Virus record (IMG/VR): IMGVR_UViG_3300042561_001378
Location: 14,144 to 78,143 of that record
DNA: 64,000 nt
From: a virus
Reading direction: 5' to 3' (one strand)
Of the stretch, positions 11,245 through 59,812 are shown one piece after another. Positions within the stretch are counted from its first letter, which is position 1. Every line of letters begins with the position of its first letter. The notes below the pieces were generated by a model, which had not been told where the DNA came from, did no database searches, and was given only the letters and a program-made list of their open reading frames with translations. The position numbers and the translations under genes were made by a program.

Positions 11245-11353
11245 GGGCAGATCAACTCAACTCATCTCGCATCTTCTCGTCTCCCCTCGACTCCTCTCAT
11301 CTCTTCTCTCCTCTCCTCTGCTCGACTCTACTCCACTCTTCTCGACTCAACCG

Positions 11354-12760
11354 AACCCCGTCAGCGATGGCGGGGTTTCTCATGGGCGGGGGTGGGGGTA
11401 TAATGAGGGGCAGATCAACTCGCATCGACTCTGCTCCCCTCATCTCAACTCGCCTCGCCTCGTCTCATCTCATCTCGACTCTTCTCGTCTCGCCTCAGCT
11501 CAGCACAAGGCAACTCAACCGAACCCCGTCAGCGATGGCGGGGTTTCTCATTGCGGGGGTATGGCATAATGGGGGGACAGCTCATCTCCACTCAACTCAC
11601 CTCCTCTTAACTCGGCTCTTCTCGTCTCCGCTCTCCTCGTCTCCTCTCGACTCTTCTCGTCTCGCCTCAGCTCAGCACAAGGCGGCTCAACCAAACCCCG
11701 CCAGCGATGGCGGGGTTTCTCATTGCGGGGGTATGGCATAATGGGGGGACAACTCAACTCTCCTCTCCTCCACTCGGCTCTGCTCCCCTCGCCTCTTCTC
11801 GACTCGACTCAACCGAACCCCGTCAGCGATGGCGGGGTTTCTCATGGCGGGGGGTGTGGCATAATGAGGGGACAACTCGTCTCAACTCCTCTCACCTCGG
11901 CTCGCATCTGCTCGTCTCTACTCATCTCTTCTCCCCTCATCTCGGCTCATCTCGACTCGACTCAACTCAGCTCATCTCTTCTCGTCTCGCCTCAGCTCAG
12001 CACAAGGCAGCTCAACCAAACCCCGTCAGCGATGGCGGGGTTTCTCATTACAGGGGTATGGCATAATGGGGGGACATCTCAGCTCCGCTCATCTCCCCTC
12101 GACTCATCTCGTCTCGACTCGTTTCCTCTCCCCTCGACTCGACTCGACCAAACCCCGTCATTGCTGGCGGGGTTTCTCATTGCGGGGGTATGGCATAATG
12201 GGGGGACAACTCGCCTCGGATCGCCTCACCTCGGCTCAACTCGGCTCGTCTCAACTCCCCTCGACTCGACTCAACCGAACCCCGTCAGCGATGGCGGGGT
12301 TTCTCATGGCAGGGGTGTGGCATAATGGGGGGACAGCTCAGCTCATCTCAACTCCCCTCGCCTCTACTCACCTCGACTCACATCTGCTCGGCTCATCTCG
12401 TCTCGCCTCAGCTCAGCACAAGGCAGCTCAACCAAACCCCGTCAGCGATGGCGGGGTTTCTCATGGGCAGGGTATGGCATAATGAGGGGACATCTCAGCT
12501 CCGCTCGGCTCTGCTCTGCTCGGCTCGCCTCGGCTCATCTCGCCTCACCTCGCCTCTGCTCATCTCGACTCAACCGAACCCCGTCAGCAATGGCGGGGTT
12601 TCTCGTGGGCGGGGTATGGCATAATGGGGGGACAGCTCATCTCGACTCGTCTCGGCTCAGCTCGTCTCCACTCGACTCCGCTCGCCTCCTCTCGACTCAT
12701 CTCGACTCCTCTCCGCTCTTCTCGACTCAACCAAACCCCGTCAGTGATGGCGGGGTTTCT
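11354..12760 (+). terminator. ten repeated intrinsic terminator-like hairpins
   Basis: ccccg(t/c)ca-loop-tggcgggg followed by tttct; loops are GCGA, GCAA or GTGA (GNRA), with TTGC once. Confidence 0.7.
11399..12625 (+). promoter_or_regulatory. nine repeated -10 promoter elements, one before each of units 2-10
   Basis: TATAAT at 11399; TGgCATAAT (extended -10) with CATAAT at 11565, 11737, 11860, 12062, 12194, 12321, 12478 and 12620. Confidence 0.65.
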
Positions 12761-12988
12761 CATTGCGCCACTGCCACACCACCCCAGGCCGTCGCGGGCT
12801 TTCCCCTGTCCCCAGATCCAGCACCTCGACCTCGACCCCGCCCGACCTCAGCACTACAGCATCGACACACCACCGCCCCACCAGCAGGCTCATCCCCGGT
12901 GGGTACAGATAAACCCAGGGGCACCATACCGCCAGCCCCCAGCGATCGCACCGCAGTCCCCATCGTTCGGCCTGGCCCTTTTCCATAC

Positions 12989-51642: not shown

Positions 51643-51836
51643 GGCTGCACATCATACAGGCACAACTCCCACCCTACGATGCCGCTGGGGGGCTGTAGCA
51701 CGGTGTAAAGTCCTGGGTGCATGATGTGCCGGGGAACACCCCAAAAACTATTTCCCGCATGGTTCCCCCGTATGGTGGACGGTGCGCCTGGATTGAGCTA
51801 CAATTAAAGAAGCTCAATTTACAGGCTATTACGATT

Positions 51837-52397
51837 ATGGACGACGAAGTATTCCCCGATATTGATGTAAGCAGCCTGCCTTGGTTGCCTCTTTTTGTGA
51901 ACTCGGCGTTTCCCTCCCAGCCATGTATTTACTTTGTCATGGATTCCCAATCATCTGTTAAGTACATTGGGAGGACGTTAGACACCTTTTATCGATGGGG
52001 CAGCCATCATAGGTTCGATGAGTTAATCAAGATTGAGGGGGCCAAGATTGCATATTTATTCTTAGACGAGCCAAAGCTCGTAAAGGCTGAAGCAGAGCTT
52101 ATTAGGCGCTTTGAGCCTCCGCTCAACCGGGTAAATCCTACGGGCAACCCTGCCAACCAAAACCAAAAGGAATTGCCTTTTAGTTCAATCCCGATTCAGC
52201 TAAAGATACTTTTTGAGCATGTTGATCTTACCATCGCAAAAGCAGCCCGGAAAGTTTCACAGTCGCAAGCCCAAGGATACAAGAGCGCTCATAAGCGATT
52301 TTCAAAATACTTCAAAGCGCCGCCAGAGTCTTTAATCCTTTTTGAAAAAGATATGGATTCGCTGGGGCTTGAATTACTTATCCGGGAAAAGCCTTGA
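51837..52397 (+). CDS. GIY-YIG nuclease fused to an HTH-like domain
   Basis: CIYFV...YIGRT...RW..H...EAELIRRFEPPLN; C-terminus homologous to 53322..53546. Confidence 0.75.
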   Translation: MDDEVFPDIDVSSLPWLPLFVNSAFPSQPCIYFVMDSQSSVKYIGRTLDTFYRWGSHHRFDELIKIEGAKIAYLFLDEPKLVKAEAELIRRFEPPLNRVNPTGNPANQNQKELPFSSIPIQLKILFEHVDLTIAKAARKVSQSQAQGYKSAHKRFSKYFKAPPESLILFEKDMDSLGLELLIREKP

Positions 52398-54992: not shown

Positions 54993-55319
54993 GTTTCACA
55001 GCGCACAGCCGGGAGTAGCGCCCCGGCAATACACCCTTAATCAAGCTATGAAAACTAAGTTTGAATGCCAGTTTAATCCTGGTCAAGTTGATTCGATTGA
55101 GCCCCTGATTTTCACTCGAGACCAACTGATTGATTATTTTGCAGAACAAGAGATAACAATGGGGCAACCATTTACGGCCCCACCGATCGATGTGATTGAC
55201 GACTGCCAATTTACCGAAATGTACCGGGCTGCTGACGTTTTTCAAAGCGGTCTTGTGTACTACGTCCCTCGGAACTAAGCCCACACAGCGCCTTGCCCGG
55301 TTCGCTACCGGGCCTAACC

Positions 55320-55598
55320 ATGCCTACCCCACCCCGTAACGTGCTCAGCCTATCGCTGAGCGCAGAAGATCAAGCCCTGCTGGCTGATGTCCTGGCCGAG
55401 GCTGGGTTCAGCAAGCCTACCCAGTTCCTGCGGAGTGTCGCCCGTCGCCAGACTGCGATCGGCCCTCCCACTAACGCGGGATTGCAACGGCAGATCAGCG
55501 CCTTGGCTGAGCAGCTAGAGCTCCAGGCCAATGCCATCGAGGAGCTACGCTGCCACGCCGCAGGGCTACCCCCGCGATCGCTCACGGAGCTACCATGA
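55320..55598 (+). CDS. ribbon-helix-helix-like regulator at the head of the type IV-B operon
   Basis: VLSLSLSAEDQALL...PTQFLRSV; ATGA overlap with csf1. Confidence 0.45.
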   Translation: MPTPPRNVLSLSLSAEDQALLADVLAEAGFSKPTQFLRSVARRQTAIGPPTNAGLQRQISALAEQLELQANAIEELRCHAAGLPPRSLTELP

Positions 55599-56260
55599 AC
55601 ACATCCCAACTGCTATATCCAACGCCGCCCACGGAGGGCGCTACGGAGGATCATTGCTCAGTCTGTGGATGGTATGGGCCGACCTATGCCAAGACTGAGG
55701 TTTTCAGCAAAAGCACCGGGGCCGTGTCGGTGCTAGCAACGGTGCCAACCGATCGCATCTGCGTCTATTGCGCTGCCCTTTGGGGAGAACCCAAAGTTTT
55801 TGCCCGTGCAGTGCTAGCCACACCAGAAGCAGTACAGTTTCCTACGATCGCGCCAGACCCAGCAGGGCAACGGCCCACATGGGGGCAAGCGCTAGCCGCC
55901 CTAGACCCAACACGGCCTCGCGTGTGCATCCTCACCACAGACCCCAAAAAACGAGTCTGGCCCTTTGCCCAGGTGAGCCAGGGCGATCGACTGAGTATGT
56001 ACGTACACGACCCCAGCCGGGGCATCTCAGGCAATCGTGTAGTGAGCCTGTCGCTACTTCTAAGGACAATCGCTGATATTGAAGCCATCTACAATCTAGG
56101 TTTTAGCAAAACCGCCATTGAGCGCGGATTGCTGGATGACCTAAAGCGCTCCAAAGCACTAGGTATCCCCGCCACCGTTGCCCACGAAAGACACTTACAA
56201 AGTGTCCGTACACTTCCCGAGTTTTTGCCTGCATTAATCATTGCTCAAAAGGAGCCCTAG
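55595..56260 (+). CDS. csf1: type IV CRISPR-associated Csf1 (Cas8-like)
   Basis: CSVCG...ICVYCA zinc motifs; KKRVWP; GFSKTAIERG; first gene of the operon. Confidence 0.7.
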   Translation: MNTSQLLYPTPPTEGATEDHCSVCGWYGPTYAKTEVFSKSTGAVSVLATVPTDRICVYCAALWGEPKVFARAVLATPEAVQFPTIAPDPAGQRPTWGQALAALDPTRPRVCILTTDPKKRVWPFAQVSQGDRLSMYVHDPSRGISGNRVVSLSLLLRTIADIEAIYNLGFSKTAIERGLLDDLKRSKALGIPATVAHERHLQSVRTLPEFLPALIIAQKEP

Positions 56261-56262
56261 CC

Positions 56263-57681
56263 ATGCCCGATCGCATTTTACTCAAGCTCACTGCCCTAAC
56301 CCCTGTAGCCCATGGCGAGGCCGGGGCCAATAGTACAGGGCCGAATAATACCACCCTGTTCAACCGGCAGTTGCAACGACTCACTAAAGAAACAGTGGGG
56401 GTGGATGTGATAGTTGCCAGAGACGCCATTGCAAACCTCCTGACGGCCATGCCTATTGGTGCCGATACCTTCCCCCTGCTGGAGTCGTTAAAAGGGGCTG
56501 AGTTAGTAGCAGCGCTATTTGTAGCTCAGGTGCCAATCATGTTCCCCGGAGACGGTGAGGGGCTATTCACTGGCATGGAGCGATACCGAATGCTAAGCAC
56601 CCGCTTAGCCGATGGGGCTAAGTGCTGCACTACGTTGCCAGAATTGTGGAGTTACCTTAGCCGAAAGCTTACGCTCCCCATGTTCCCTACCTATGGGTTT
56701 GAGGCAATGCGGGCGTTTTTTATTCTCCCTAAGGCCATCCAGGGGCAGGCCATCCAGGCCATTAGCAGGGCGCTAGAGCTTACGGTAATGGCCGCTCGGA
56801 TGCTGGCAGAAAGCATTAAGGTAGAGCGCAAAACCGCTAAAGACAACAACCTTAGTTTGTTCGCAGCAAAGGTGTACCAGGCCAGCCCTGAACAGTTAGC
56901 CGATCTCACCCGGCCCAAGGCGGAGGCAATCGTAATGCCCGTCCCCAGCATTAGCGGCAATGCCCTAAGACACTGCCTAATCCGTGAGCCCGGCGCAAAC
57001 CGGCTGATTCAATCTCTAGGCCTAGAACCCTACACCGATCGCGCTGGTGAGCACCTGGGCTTAGGCATTACTCGCTTTTTGTACGGCGGAGGGCAGCTTG
57101 CGGCTAAGGCCAAGGCACCCAGCGCTAGCGACATCTACGAAGCTCAGATCCGCAGCACTTACCCTATTGTGGATGCCGTGGGGGGCAGCACTGATTCCTG
57201 GCTGATGGCCGAAAGCGCCTGCAAGGTTGCAGGCTGGGTAGTCTGCGAAGAAAACAATGTTGCTACTCAGGCGATCGCCGGGGTTGAGTCGCAGGTGAGC
57301 ATTTTTGATTACCTCAGCGAAGAAACCAAAACCAGAACTGGCATCGGTGGCAAGGATAAAGAATCGGGGCAGATGATTTTTAGCTACGAAACCTTAGCCG
57401 CTGGCTTGCCCTTGATTGTAGAGATTCTGTTCAATCCATTCACCCAACCCCTGACCATTGGCGCGGTATGGCAAGCGGTGCATGATTGGGCAGATGAAGG
57501 CGGCATTGTGGGGGGCCGTAGCCAGATTGGCCATAGCCGCTTTGCCATGGAGGTATTGCAAGGCAGCTATGGGTTACAGGGCAAAGCATACCTGAACTAC
57601 CTAGAGGCAGAGCGCGATAGTCTACGGCCTGGATTGCTCGATGCCACAATGGGGACAGGGGCTGTGCTATGTGCGGCTTAA
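56263..57681 (+). CDS. csf2: type IV-B Csf2 (Cas7) with an inserted Cas11-like helical domain
   Basis: LTALTPVAHG..NTTLFNRQ; VPSISGNALRH; LYGGGQL; QMIFSYETLAAG; VGGRSQIGHSR. At 472 aa it is longer than usual. Confidence 0.85.
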   Translation: MPDRILLKLTALTPVAHGEAGANSTGPNNTTLFNRQLQRLTKETVGVDVIVARDAIANLLTAMPIGADTFPLLESLKGAELVAALFVAQVPIMFPGDGEGLFTGMERYRMLSTRLADGAKCCTTLPELWSYLSRKLTLPMFPTYGFEAMRAFFILPKAIQGQAIQAISRALELTVMAARMLAESIKVERKTAKDNNLSLFAAKVYQASPEQLADLTRPKAEAIVMPVPSISGNALRHCLIREPGANRLIQSLGLEPYTDRAGEHLGLGITRFLYGGGQLAAKAKAPSASDIYEAQIRSTYPIVDAVGGSTDSWLMAESACKVAGWVVCEENNVATQAIAGVESQVSIFDYLSEETKTRTGIGGKDKESGQMIFSYETLAAGLPLIVEILFNPFTQPLTIGAVWQAVHDWADEGGIVGGRSQIGHSRFAMEVLQGSYGLQGKAYLNYLEAERDSLRPGLLDATMGTGAVLCAA

Positions 57682-58370
57682 GCCCTTCCGAGCGGGGCGT
57701 TTTGACGGCATGGTCAAAACGCCCCAGCCATCAAGAAAAAGTTGATAAGGCTTTAGCCGATATCCAAAAAGCCTTATCAATTGACTCTGCCTATGTTGGT
57801 ATTTCCTGGGGTAAAGACTCTATCGTTTTGCTTCATCTAACCCAGCAAGTATGTCCTGGAATCCCTGCTATTTCCTTTACTCATCCAGAGCGAGAATTGA
57901 TCTCAAATTATGCCGAGGTAGAGAATGTCTACTGCGATCGATTTCAGCCAAACTTGATTGATTTAGCGATGGATGGAGACCACGTACCGCTAAAGGTAAA
58001 TGCTGCGAAGTTGTGGGAGCAATACCCCATGGCGTTGCTAGGCATCCGCAAAGAAGAGAGCCAAAAGCGCAGCATCACCATTGGGAAGTACGGGGTAATT
58101 CACCAGTATGAATCTGGCAATAAAAAAGGTAGTTGGCGATGCTTTCCCTTAGCCTACTGGACTTGGCGTGATGTTTGGGCCTATATCGCAGCCAACGATT
58201 TGCCATCACTTAATGCCTATGCTGACCAGCCAAAAGCAACGGGAAGGACTACAGACCACTTCTCAAAATCTGCTACCAAAACATGGACGCAGACTCGCTT
58301 TGAAAATCTAAAAAGGCTTAATCCTGATTATTACCGTTACCTGCAAACCCATTATCCGGAAATGGTATGA
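57669..58370 (+). CDS. cysH: CysH-like PAPS-reductase family protein of type IV-B
   Basis: ISWGKDSIVL, GIRKEESQKR, PLAYWTWRDVWAYI. Confidence 0.88.
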   Translation: MCGLSPSERGVLTAWSKRPSHQEKVDKALADIQKALSIDSAYVGISWGKDSIVLLHLTQQVCPGIPAISFTHPERELISNYAEVENVYCDRFQPNLIDLAMDGDHVPLKVNAAKLWEQYPMALLGIRKEESQKRSITIGKYGVIHQYESGNKKGSWRCFPLAYWTWRDVWAYIAANDLPSLNAYADQPKATGRTTDHFSKSATKTWTQTRFENLKRLNPDYYRYLQTHYPEMV

Positions 58371-58732
58371 GCAAACTCCAGATCAATAACTACCAATCGC
58401 CTCTTCATCAATGGTCGCCAATGGTGGGTAGCCAAGCTTTAGGGATTGGATTGGTAAAAGATAACAGATTTGCCGCTGATATGCTGAAATTTGAACCAGG
58501 GCAATGTACTAGCGTTCACACTCATCCTGGCGACCATATTCTTTTTGTCGTCAACGGCAATGGATTTTTGCTATACGACGGCGATCGCTACGATTTGATT
58601 GAGGGCGCTTGCTATTTTGTGCCAGGTGCAACACCTCATCAGGTGAGCGCAACATCAATAATGTTTTTGCTTTCTGTATCCAACGACCACCGCACCGTTG
58701 ATAGCGCTGAACGATTGAGAATTATCCAATGA
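58367..58732 (+). CDS. cupin domain protein
   Basis: HTHPGDHILFVVNGNG...GACYFVPGATPHQV. Confidence 0.85.
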   Translation: MSKLQINNYQSPLHQWSPMVGSQALGIGLVKDNRFAADMLKFEPGQCTSVHTHPGDHILFVVNGNGFLLYDGDRYDLIEGACYFVPGATPHQVSATSIMFLLSVSNDHRTVDSAERLRIIQ

Positions 58733-59424
58733 ACATAATCAACATCCCCGAACTAGACGCCATGGGCGATCGCTTTGCGGCCCTACCCATGGCCCCGTTC
58801 CGCCTTACACTGCAAACGATAAAACCTGTAGCAGGCAACGATGCACTGCACCTGGACGGGCTGCTAGCCAAAGCCGTGGTGATAGAGGCGATGCAGGGTA
58901 AACCCTTGCTACCTACCGAAGACGCCTACTACATGCCCTTGCCATTGGGCCTAGAGCGATTGCATCTGGGCTTACCCGTGTGGCAATGCAATGATTTTGC
59001 AGCCGTAGAATCAGCGGTAGGCCATACCCACTACCACCAGCGCAGCGACTCCAACCCCTACGACCCCGCCGCCACAATTGCTACCCTACCCCAGACCAAA
59101 CGCAGACGAATGCCGCCTACAACTGAGGGGCAGTATATGAGCTACCGAGTCCCCCTTCAGTACACTGAGGCCGATTGCTGGCACTGCGAAGCCGTGGGCA
59201 ATGCCGATGAGGTGCTGCGGCTATTGCGCGAATATATCCCCACCGTAGGCAAAAAAGGGGCGCAAGGCTATGGCCGCGCACTAAGTTGGGAGGCTACTCC
59301 GCTGGCCCGTTTTGAGCTACACCGCCCAGTCCCCATTGCTGATACCTCACAGCCCTTCAATGCTCAGATCATGGGGTGGACGCCGCCCTATTGGCATCGC
59401 AGTCTATGGCGACTTTGCGGCTAG
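58729..59424 (+). CDS. csf3: type IV Csf3 (Cas5-like)
   Basis: LHLDGLLA, PLPL, VGKKGAQGYG Gly-loop, RPVP, PPYWH. Confidence 0.85.
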   Translation: MNIINIPELDAMGDRFAALPMAPFRLTLQTIKPVAGNDALHLDGLLAKAVVIEAMQGKPLLPTEDAYYMPLPLGLERLHLGLPVWQCNDFAAVESAVGHTHYHQRSDSNPYDPAATIATLPQTKRRRMPPTTEGQYMSYRVPLQYTEADCWHCEAVGNADEVLRLLREYIPTVGKKGAQGYGRALSWEATPLARFELHRPVPIADTSQPFNAQIMGWTPPYWHRSLWRLCG

Positions 59425-59440
59425 CCCACGGATCTCCCCT

Positions 59441-59500
59441 ATACCCCCAACACAAAGCCCCTGATCCAGCGCTGGATCAGGGGCTTTGTGTTGGGGGTAT
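59441..59500. repeat. perfect 60-bp palindrome
   Basis: atacccccaacacaaagcccctgatccagc|gctggatcaggggctttgtgttgggggtat. Confidence 0.95.
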
Positions 59501-59581
59501 CCCGGCTACTCGCTCAGCCACGTCCGCAGCAGGGCCACCGCCTGGGCCACCGTAGCGCGATCGGCGGGGTCGAGGGTGGGG

Positions 59582-59812
59582 CTATTTTTCGTAAGTCTCC
59601 CCACGTTCCCACGCCTTAGCCCGCTTCACCAAGTTGCCGTAGGCGGGGCTGTTGTGGTGCTCCTCAAGGATGCTGTTGATGTGGCTGGCTAAGGGGATCC
59701 CCTTCTCTTTCGCCACAAGATCCATCTCCTCAAAAGTCTTGGCGCTCAGCGTGATGGTCACTCGGGGGTTCTTGGTCGCCACTTCAGTACCTGGTTCTTC
59801 CACCGCAATCAT
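59582..59812 (-). CDS. CopG/ribbon-helix-helix regulator
   Basis: KNPRVTITLSAKTFEEMDLVAKEKGIPLASHINSILE. Confidence 0.7.
   Translation of the reverse strand: MIAVEEPGTEVATKNPRVTITLSAKTFEEMDLVAKEKGIPLASHINSILEEHHNSPAYGNLVKRAKAWERGETYEK

Follow-up and report, generated by a model that had tools for sequence, protein, structure and literature searches.

The Csf complex of type IV-B CRISPR-Cas systems assembles on non-CRISPR RNA (PMC7937560), and the function of this subtype is not demonstrated in the literature examined, which extended to the 2025 classification update. Phage- and virus-borne type IV-B loci have already been published (PMC7038947; PMC10848311; bioRxiv 10.1101/2023.08.02.551345). 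For example, a locus with a cysH-like gene was described in the 'Fuxiviridae' of Bathyarchaeia, and a role in counter-defence was proposed for it (PMC10848311). The same role was proposed for a type IV-B locus of a Methanoperedens virus, which likewise includes a cysH-like gene (bioRxiv 10.1101/2023.08.02.551345). Here, a further virus-borne locus is examined: the csf1-csf2-cysH-cupin-csf3 operon at positions 55595-59424 of a 64,000-nt stretch of the IMG/VR record IMGVR_UViG_3300042561_001378 (the window, i.e., the whole stretch of DNA that was analysed). Taken together, the evidence makes it very probable that the operon encodes a functional type IV-B effector without an array, that its Csf2 carries a Cas11 domain and that a foreign cassette of two genes has taken over the CysH slot.

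The csf operon

Five open reading frames (ORFs) on the plus strand occupy positions 55595-59424 in the order csf1-csf2-cysH-like-cupin-csf3. They are translationally coupled; the junctions consist, in order, of a 2-nt gap, a 13-nt overlap and two ATGA overlaps. The three core Csf proteins were recognised by PADLOC profiles: the type IV large-subunit-like Csf1 (55595..56260, +, 221 aa) by typeIV_Cas8/Csf1_0_IV at 5.4e-8, the long Csf2, or Cas7 (56263..57681, +, 472 aa), by typeIV_Cas7 at 8.9e-25, and Csf3, or Cas5 (58729..59424, +, 231 aa), by typeIV_Cas5/Csf3_0_IV at 6.1e-28. The match of Csf1 is the weakest of the three; its translation contains a zinc-finger motif of the form CxxC...CxxC (CSVC, CVYC). 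Csf3 also matched the NCBIfam profile cas5_csf3 (TIGR03116) at 1.7e-9, with 37.6 bits that lie under the curated cut-off of 140. When compared with a sister phage (L003/L053), whose 79.7-kb record has terminal repeats, the ratio of nonsynonymous to synonymous substitution rates (dN/dS) is 0.10 for csf1 and 0.12 for csf3.

No CRISPR-like array was detected in the whole 78 kb genome or in the sister phage, and the genome yielded no Cas1 and, by tblastn, no Cas6; Cas2 was not part of this search. A separate cas11 gene is likewise lacking from the phage genome, and the ORFs flanking the operon gave no PADLOC match to a DinG/RecD helicase or to Cas10. An earlier interpretation made from the letters of the window (hereafter the sequence-only reading) had proposed this five-gene operon as a type IV-B module with no array, cas1 or cas6. 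The five coupled ORFs are indeed present at 55595-59424, the Csf profile matches and the fold of Csf2 relative to solved type IV Cas7 proteins bear out the subtype, and the absences extend from the window to the full genome. That reading overlooked Cas11, which is predicted to be present as a domain inside Csf2.

A Cas11-like domain within Csf2

Only residues 222-455 of Csf2 are covered by Cas7 profiles, and yet the first residues of the protein still resemble the first Cas7 strand. About 50 homologous clusters of 456-500 aa align with it over the full length at 42-99% identity, none of them annotated. An AlphaFold2 model built on 32 long-form sequences (pLDDT, the predicted local distance difference test, 81) begins with two strands, which are followed by an all-helical block at approximately residues 45-216 and then by the remainder of the Cas7 fold. 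The core of this model matches solved type IV Csf2 proteins (8rc3_A, Z 18.5; 7jhy_e, Z 16.7), and at the sequence level the profile A2 matches 7jhy_e, also a Csf2, at 4.5e-6.

The helical insertion, delimited as Csf2 residues 44-218 (175 residues; 56392..56916, +), separates the second strand of the Cas7 core from the third. Modelled alone, the helical block reached a pLDDT of 86 and a predicted template-modelling score (pTM) of 0.84. When it was compared with 48,161 representative Protein Data Bank (PDB) chains, the best match was 7jhy_h (Z 10.2; root-mean-square deviation 3.1 Å; 125/143 residues aligned), a chain that its depositors named 'Csf4 (Cas11)' of the type IV-B complex. This was the sole match above Z 5, and the runner-up scored Z 4.8. 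The top Foldseek match was 7jhy_g, the same Cas11 protein, at E 0.47 and a probability of 0.91.

Gene content points in the same direction as the predicted structure. Ten viral loci with a long Csf2 (L054-L063) have the order csf1-csf2-csf3-cysH or a variant of it and no cas11 gene, whereas in loci with a Csf2 of about 400 aa a cas11 gene is found directly upstream. Relative to the sister phage, dN/dS is 0.05 for Csf2 and 0.054 for the insertion, which is thus held under the same constraint as the core. On the basis of the model and of this gene content, the insertion is classed as a Cas11-like small subunit. Three proteins, namely Csf1, Csf2 with its putative Cas11 domain and Csf3, can accordingly supply all four parts of the solved complex. 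The long Csf2 is not a mis-joined gene pair: the insertion has Cas7 strands on either side of it, and dozens of independent assemblies show an open frame.

Three further observations concern csf2 and the loci of the long form. In a freshwater metatranscriptome, two 151-nt contigs are exact matches to csf2 (window positions 56879-57266); they are a weak hint of expression and too little to claim it, as RNA libraries can contain DNA. One of the long-Csf2 loci carries, after its cysH-like gene, a second gene of 418 aa that resembles DndC/PAPS reductase (L054:7908-9164; PADLOC DndC, 7e-7) and is another variant of the enzyme slot. A second locus, with the order csf1-csf2-csf3-cas6-cysH, encodes Cas6 (L055:5605-6228; PADLOC, 8e-45), so Cas6 is not confined to the backbone that bears cas11.

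Exchange and recurrence of the cysH-cupin cassette

The comparison with the sister phage delimits a cassette of the cysH-like and cupin genes (57680..58723, +). By blastn, the two phages are 87% identical in nucleotides over positions 55282-57679, a span that begins before csf1 and ends at the csf2 stop; homology then ceases and restarts at 58724, from where it continues at 81% through csf3. In place of the cassette, the sister phage has one CysH-like gene of 231 aa, whose product is 31% identical to that of the window, and no cupin. The breakpoints coincide with gene boundaries. In addition, the cassette differs from its surroundings in base composition, with a GC content of 0.46 for cysH and 0.45 for the cupin vs. 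0.55-0.58 for csf1, csf2 and csf3. The pair of sister phages thus represents a natural swap, and near-identical backbones with different CysH modules indicate that the enzyme module is exchangeable.

The cysH-cupin pair recurs in other phages. Among 14 contigs that encode a cupin at least 50% identical to that of the window (seven viral and six further metagenomic ones among those with the pair), 13 have a cysH of the same clade directly upstream. The exception is a 2-kb contig (L022) with a 55%-identical cupin and no recognisable cysH upstream of it. Across the cupin-linked loci (L004-L010 and L020-L028), the relatives are 43-57% identical to the window in CysH and 49-61% in the cupin, and the two genes are adjacent. 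Their operons comprise a separate cas11, a csf2 for a protein of about 400 aa, csf3 and csf1, to which cas6 is often added, and the gene order differs among loci. Wherever the flanking sequence suffices, the pair lies inside the csf operon and is usually translationally coupled. No cas context surrounds cupins below about 46% identity, and a cupin profile scan of genome contigs returned only distant cupins (36-41% identity), again with no cas context. The Cas-linked clade is rare: it amounts to 15 clusters at 90% identity, and a set of 1.84 billion proteins contained only 5 representatives at E <= 1e-30.

Phylogeny separates the cassette from its present backbone. In a maximum-likelihood tree, nine cupin-linked CysH proteins, including that of the window, form a clade with 100/99 support, and a long branch divides this clade from the two CysH clades that accompany a long Csf2. 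Unlike its CysH, the Csf2 of the window groups with the long-Csf2 lineage. Moreover, tblastn with the Csf2, Csf1, Cas11 and Cas6 of the cupin-linked relatives found no match in this phage. As the pair is shared by otherwise unrelated backbones, cysH and the cupin move jointly as a unit between type IV-B backbones. These results settle several points of the sequence-only reading. The stretch that it had judged AT-rich is so, and its suggestion of a swappable module holds in view of the sister phage, whose slot is filled differently up to the gene boundaries. The module may, as that reading further suggested, act in nucleotide or RNA modification. The cupin, which as a one-off insertion would by its terms have refuted it, adjoins a cysH of the clade in 13 other contigs. 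Its view that the cupin was inserted after a resident cysH has to be replaced, since both genes came together as one unit.

The two cassette enzymes

The first gene of the cassette (57669..58370, +) encodes a CysH-like PP-loop ATP pyrophosphatase of 233 aa, which matches the Pfam family PAPS_reduct at 5.8e-12, with 46.4 bits vs. a cut-off of 22.5. It shares the PP-loop fold and the SxGKDS motif with the superfamily of 3'-phosphoadenosine 5'-phosphosulfate (PAPS) reductases (CysH, CysD, DndC and FAD synthase), and the SWGKDS PP-loop is invariant in its clade. Its best solved relatives are CysD (1zun), CysH (1sur, 2o8v) and FAD synthase, i.e., enzymes of adenylyl transfer. The C-terminal catalytic cysteine motif of PAPS reductase (ECGLH-type) was found neither in the window protein nor in its clade, and the scores against the NCBIfam equivalogs (19-36 bits) fall far under the cut-offs of 154-254. 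For these reasons, the protein is judged from its sequence to be neither a bona fide reductase of PAPS or adenosine 5'-phosphosulfate (APS) nor a true sulfate-assimilation enzyme. PHROGs places it among the phage 'PAPS reductase' auxiliary genes. In agreement with the window protein, the CasCysH of published type IV systems was reported to be without the catalytic cysteine (PMC8175902).

The second gene (58367..58732, +) encodes a small cupin of 121 aa, recognised by Pfam Cupin_2 at 1.8e-11 with 44 bits vs. a cut-off of 27.2. Four histidines (H51, H53, H57 and H91), situated in the motifs HTHPGxH...PH, are invariant across 15 cupin sequences. Both motifs carry predicted metal ligands, and the protein therefore fits the metal-binding Cupin_2 class. 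The closest solved chain, an unnamed cupin (9ug7_A; E 3e-19), has in common with it the cupin barrel, the HxHxxxH...H metal site and a C-terminal H-x-P-V-D motif. In two independent close pairs of relatives, the dN/dS of the cupin is about 0.10. Two distant relatives (P0154 and P0157) are fused to a condensation domain or a phosphopantetheine carrier domain of nonribosomal peptide synthetases (NRPS). Such fusions are typical of small-molecule tailoring enzymes, which suggests small-molecule tailoring as the ancestral role of the wider cupin family. Among the longer cupin relatives, no fusion of CysH to a cupin was found; their N-terminal parts are unassigned or consist of NRPS condensation or carrier domains. 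A possible relative of known chemistry is the sulfonamide synthase SbzM, a Ni/Fe cupin enzyme that oxidises and decarboxylates L-cysteine (PMC6331615).

Distant arrays in cupin-linked relatives

Two phages with a cupin-linked, Cas6-bearing type IV-B operon do hold CRISPR arrays, at a distance of about 30-40 kb from the cas genes. The first array has five repeats of 36-38 nt (L066:6614-6916, in G005), and in the second, two blocks together hold fifteen repeat copies (L070:2014-4894, in G002). The spacers extracted from both are unique and mostly 35-42 nt long, and no protospacer was detected for them among the sequences compared in this analysis. These arrays suggest that the lineage from which the cassette came was probably guided by CRISPR RNA (crRNA); its present backbone encodes no guide. 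From the perspective of annotation, arrays so far from the cas genes also imply that the array-less label of some phage type IV-B loci may partly reflect a search near the cas genes only.

The carrier phage and its probable host

The carrier encodes a tape measure protein, a major head protein, a portal and a large terminase and is thus a tailed phage. Its IMG/VR record is 78,143 bp long with a direct terminal repeat of 127 bp, and the window corresponds to bases 14144-78143. The octamer GCGATCGC occurs 50 times in the window and the preceding 14 kb, vs. about 2 expected. Enrichment is similar in the sister phage and in three cupin-linked phages, and there is none in G002. We take this octamer to be the HIP1 palindrome, typical of cyanobacteria, and its excess points to cyanobacterial hosts for most of these phages. 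Public sequencing runs that contain the csf locus come from many lake and freshwater metagenome studies. The carrier is thus probably a freshwater phage of a cyanobacterial host.

Both junctions of the cassette are spanned by contigs from independent public lake-metagenome runs; for example, a contig of 2,232 nt covers positions 57235-59441 with 38 differences. Because independent contigs bridge both junctions, the gene arrangement is not an assembly chimera. Neither phage nor plasmid collections gave a match to the locus by megablast.

Sequences around the operon

Upstream of csf1, an ORF of 101 aa with a TTG start (55293..55598, +) ends in a stop codon that overlaps the csf1 start. It is kept in the sister phage, with 87% amino acid identity and a dN/dS of 0.21, and is possibly the first gene of the operon. 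It had no match to Cas11 and no other significant profile match.

Directly 3' of csf3, folding predicts a perfect 28-bp hairpin with a 4-nt loop (59441..59500, no strand assigned). The fold of positions 59420-59600 has an energy of -98.3 kcal/mol (z -5.8). The hairpin is kept in the sister phage, where it matches in both orientations, and no U-tract follows it. It likely marks the end of the operon and may be a terminator, a role deduced from its structure and place, or a recombination site. A promoter and terminator scan performed no better than on shuffled sequence, and nothing around the locus exceeded the Rfam threshold.

Elsewhere in the window, a second patch of low GC content (0.44-0.45) holds an ORF of 226 aa (51717-52397) with a weak GIY-YIG match (E 0.0048), which may be a homing endonuclease. 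At positions 11275-12763, there are several tandem units, each of which combines a terminator-like hairpin and an extended -10-like promoter with a long stretch of CTCNN pentamers; they have the appearance of small transcription units for (CUCNN)n RNAs. The idea that these (CTCNN)n cassettes are tied to the array-less Csf complex was rejected as unsupported: the sister phage shares the csf genes but not the (CTCNN)7 run, which is also missing from four other type IV-B phages.

Working mechanism and alternative explanations

In the mechanism proposed here, Csf2 would polymerise on RNA, as in 7JHY. Because the phage has neither an array nor Cas6, this RNA would be host crRNA, another small RNA or transcripts. 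Each Csf2 protomer would bring its own Cas11 domain and so form the major and minor filaments from one polypeptide, and Csf3 and Csf1 would cap the complex. The resulting ribonucleoprotein would serve as a platform or address for the chemistry of the cassette: the CysH-like enzyme would adenylate a substrate using ATP, and the cupin, as a metal enzyme that is probably oxygen-dependent, would make a co-substrate or finish the product, before or after the CysH step. The outcome would aid the phage against host defence or rival mobile elements. The favoured explanation in its entirety has, in our estimation, roughly an even chance of being correct, and the working mechanism as a whole is offered tentatively, as a doubtful but possible scheme.

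Several points weigh against this explanation. By sequence, the similarity of the Csf2 insertion to Cas11 is not significant (hhalign, local P 0.014), its PDB profile match to 7jhy_h reached only E 0.33, and the PADLOC Cas11 hidden Markov model gave no match to Csf2 residues 1-226. As variants of CysH pass freely between backbones, CysH might have no contact with the Csf complex at all, and a four-histidine cupin could bind a ligand without catalysis. Furthermore, type IV-B systems as a whole are still without a known substrate, bound RNA or phenotype. A structure prediction for the complex of CysH and the cupin, with a score of 0.00, counts neither for nor against binding.

Among the alternatives, the complex could be a passive RNA sponge or anti-CRISPR that soaks up host crRNAs or small RNAs, with the cysH-cupin pair performing a side job or acting as a stabiliser. 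This idea is already in the literature, where the solved type IV-B complex was seen to bind heterogeneous RNA (PMC7038947; PMC7937560), and it suits a phage that lacks an array, Cas6 and a nuclease and for which counter-defence would be a fitting use. It is nevertheless improbable, given that neither enzyme varies in its catalytic motifs, that purifying selection acts on them and that cysH was published as nearly universal in type IV-B. An exchange of its content, moreover, leaves the cysH slot in place, an indication that the enzyme belongs to the function. Similarly low is the likelihood that the cupin, perhaps as a ligand-binding domain like those of AraC or ChrR, senses small molecules or acts as a regulator rather than as an enzyme and so switches the CysH-like enzyme or the operon on and off. 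Such a role would fit the small size of the cupin, its lack of any other domain and its weaker matches in Pfam and NCBIfam (AraC_binding at 4.6e-5, the PuuR regulator and ChrR cupins); however, a DNA-binding or anti-sigma partner domain is missing, none of the four metal-ligand histidines varies, and the closest relatives are stand-alone cupins, with the distant ones fused to NRPS condensation or carrier domains.

The foreign GC content of the cassette and the placement of the CysH-like protein by PHROGs would also be compatible with an auxiliary metabolic pair for host sulfur or cysteine metabolism that landed in the csf operon with no functional tie to it. Such a pair would not be expected always to lie inside csf operons where the flank suffices, in several gene orders and usually coupled, nor to lack the C-terminal cysteine needed for sulfate reduction. 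With cupins below about 46% identity found without cas context, the clade is specific to cas loci, and this alternative is very unlikely. Least plausible, to the point of being nearly negligible, is a decaying CRISPR remnant with no current function. The phage does lack an array, an adaptation module, Cas6 and a nuclease, but all ORFs are intact and coupled, dN/dS relative to the sister phage is 0.05-0.12, the same arrangement is present in several independent lake metagenomes, and the long Csf2 is full-length in about 50 clusters. Invariant catalytic motifs, a strict cas context and low dN/dS thus argue jointly against a sensor, a metabolic pair and a relic. A bolder version of the favoured explanation would regard type IV-B systems as RNA-scaffolded enzyme platforms rather than interference systems. 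CysH and the cupin would then build a small chemical group, possibly derived from cysteine, on a nucleic acid or nucleotide that the Csf filament selects, or attach it there; the cassette would be an interchangeable 'warhead' traded between backbones, and the Cas7-Cas11 fusion would provide a minimal chassis of three proteins. We regard this proposal as distinctly improbable in its full form.

Comparison with known systems

The locus offers leads on a CRISPR subtype of unknown function, and each of its peculiarities is best seen beside the systems already described. No mention of a cupin in type IV loci was found in the type IV-B literature searched for the word, and no description of a Cas11 domain inside Csf2 was found in the literature searched, part of which was covered by title. 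As an obligate partner of CysH, the cupin points to a two-step chemistry. The exchange of the cassette also qualifies the published view that cysH has diversified together with the subtype.

The Csf complex of Mycobacterium sp. JS623 (7JHY; PMC7937560) resembles the present system in its Csf1, Csf2 and Csf3, in the Cas11 fold and in the presence of a CysH-like gene. Both loci lack an array, Cas6, a helicase and a nuclease, and both reside on a mobile element. In the window, Cas11 is predicted to be a domain of Csf2 instead of the product of a separate gene; further differences are the order csf1-csf2-cysH-cupin-csf3, the added cupin and the carrier, which is a phage and not a plasmid. The loci of the Fuxiviridae and of the Methanoperedens virus, unlike that of the window, have a separate cas11 and no cupin, and the Fuxivirus has a mini-array. 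The cupin-linked phage loci have the same cysH-cupin pair as the window, but at the BLAST level their backbone is unrelated to it, with a separate cas11, a Csf2 of about 400 aa and often Cas6.

For the Csf2 insertion, the nearest parallel lies outside type IV. In the type III-E effector Cas7-11 (gRAMP; 7wah, 8d9g), a Cas11 domain is, as we understand it, likewise contained in a polypeptide with Cas7, and the Cas7 parts of these structures match the Csf2 model with Z 10-11. Cas7-11 is a single-protein effector with several Cas7 domains and one Cas11. In comparison, the long Csf2 has one Cas7 and one predicted Cas11 per protomer, and it presumably polymerises alongside a separate Cas5 and Csf1. 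With Cas11 built into Cas7, the two would be present at a 1:1 stoichiometry, which should ease reconstitution and structural work. Most likely, the Cas7-Cas11 fusions of type III-E and of the long Csf2 were independent events, and the long Csf2 would thus represent a second route to such a fusion besides that of type III-E.

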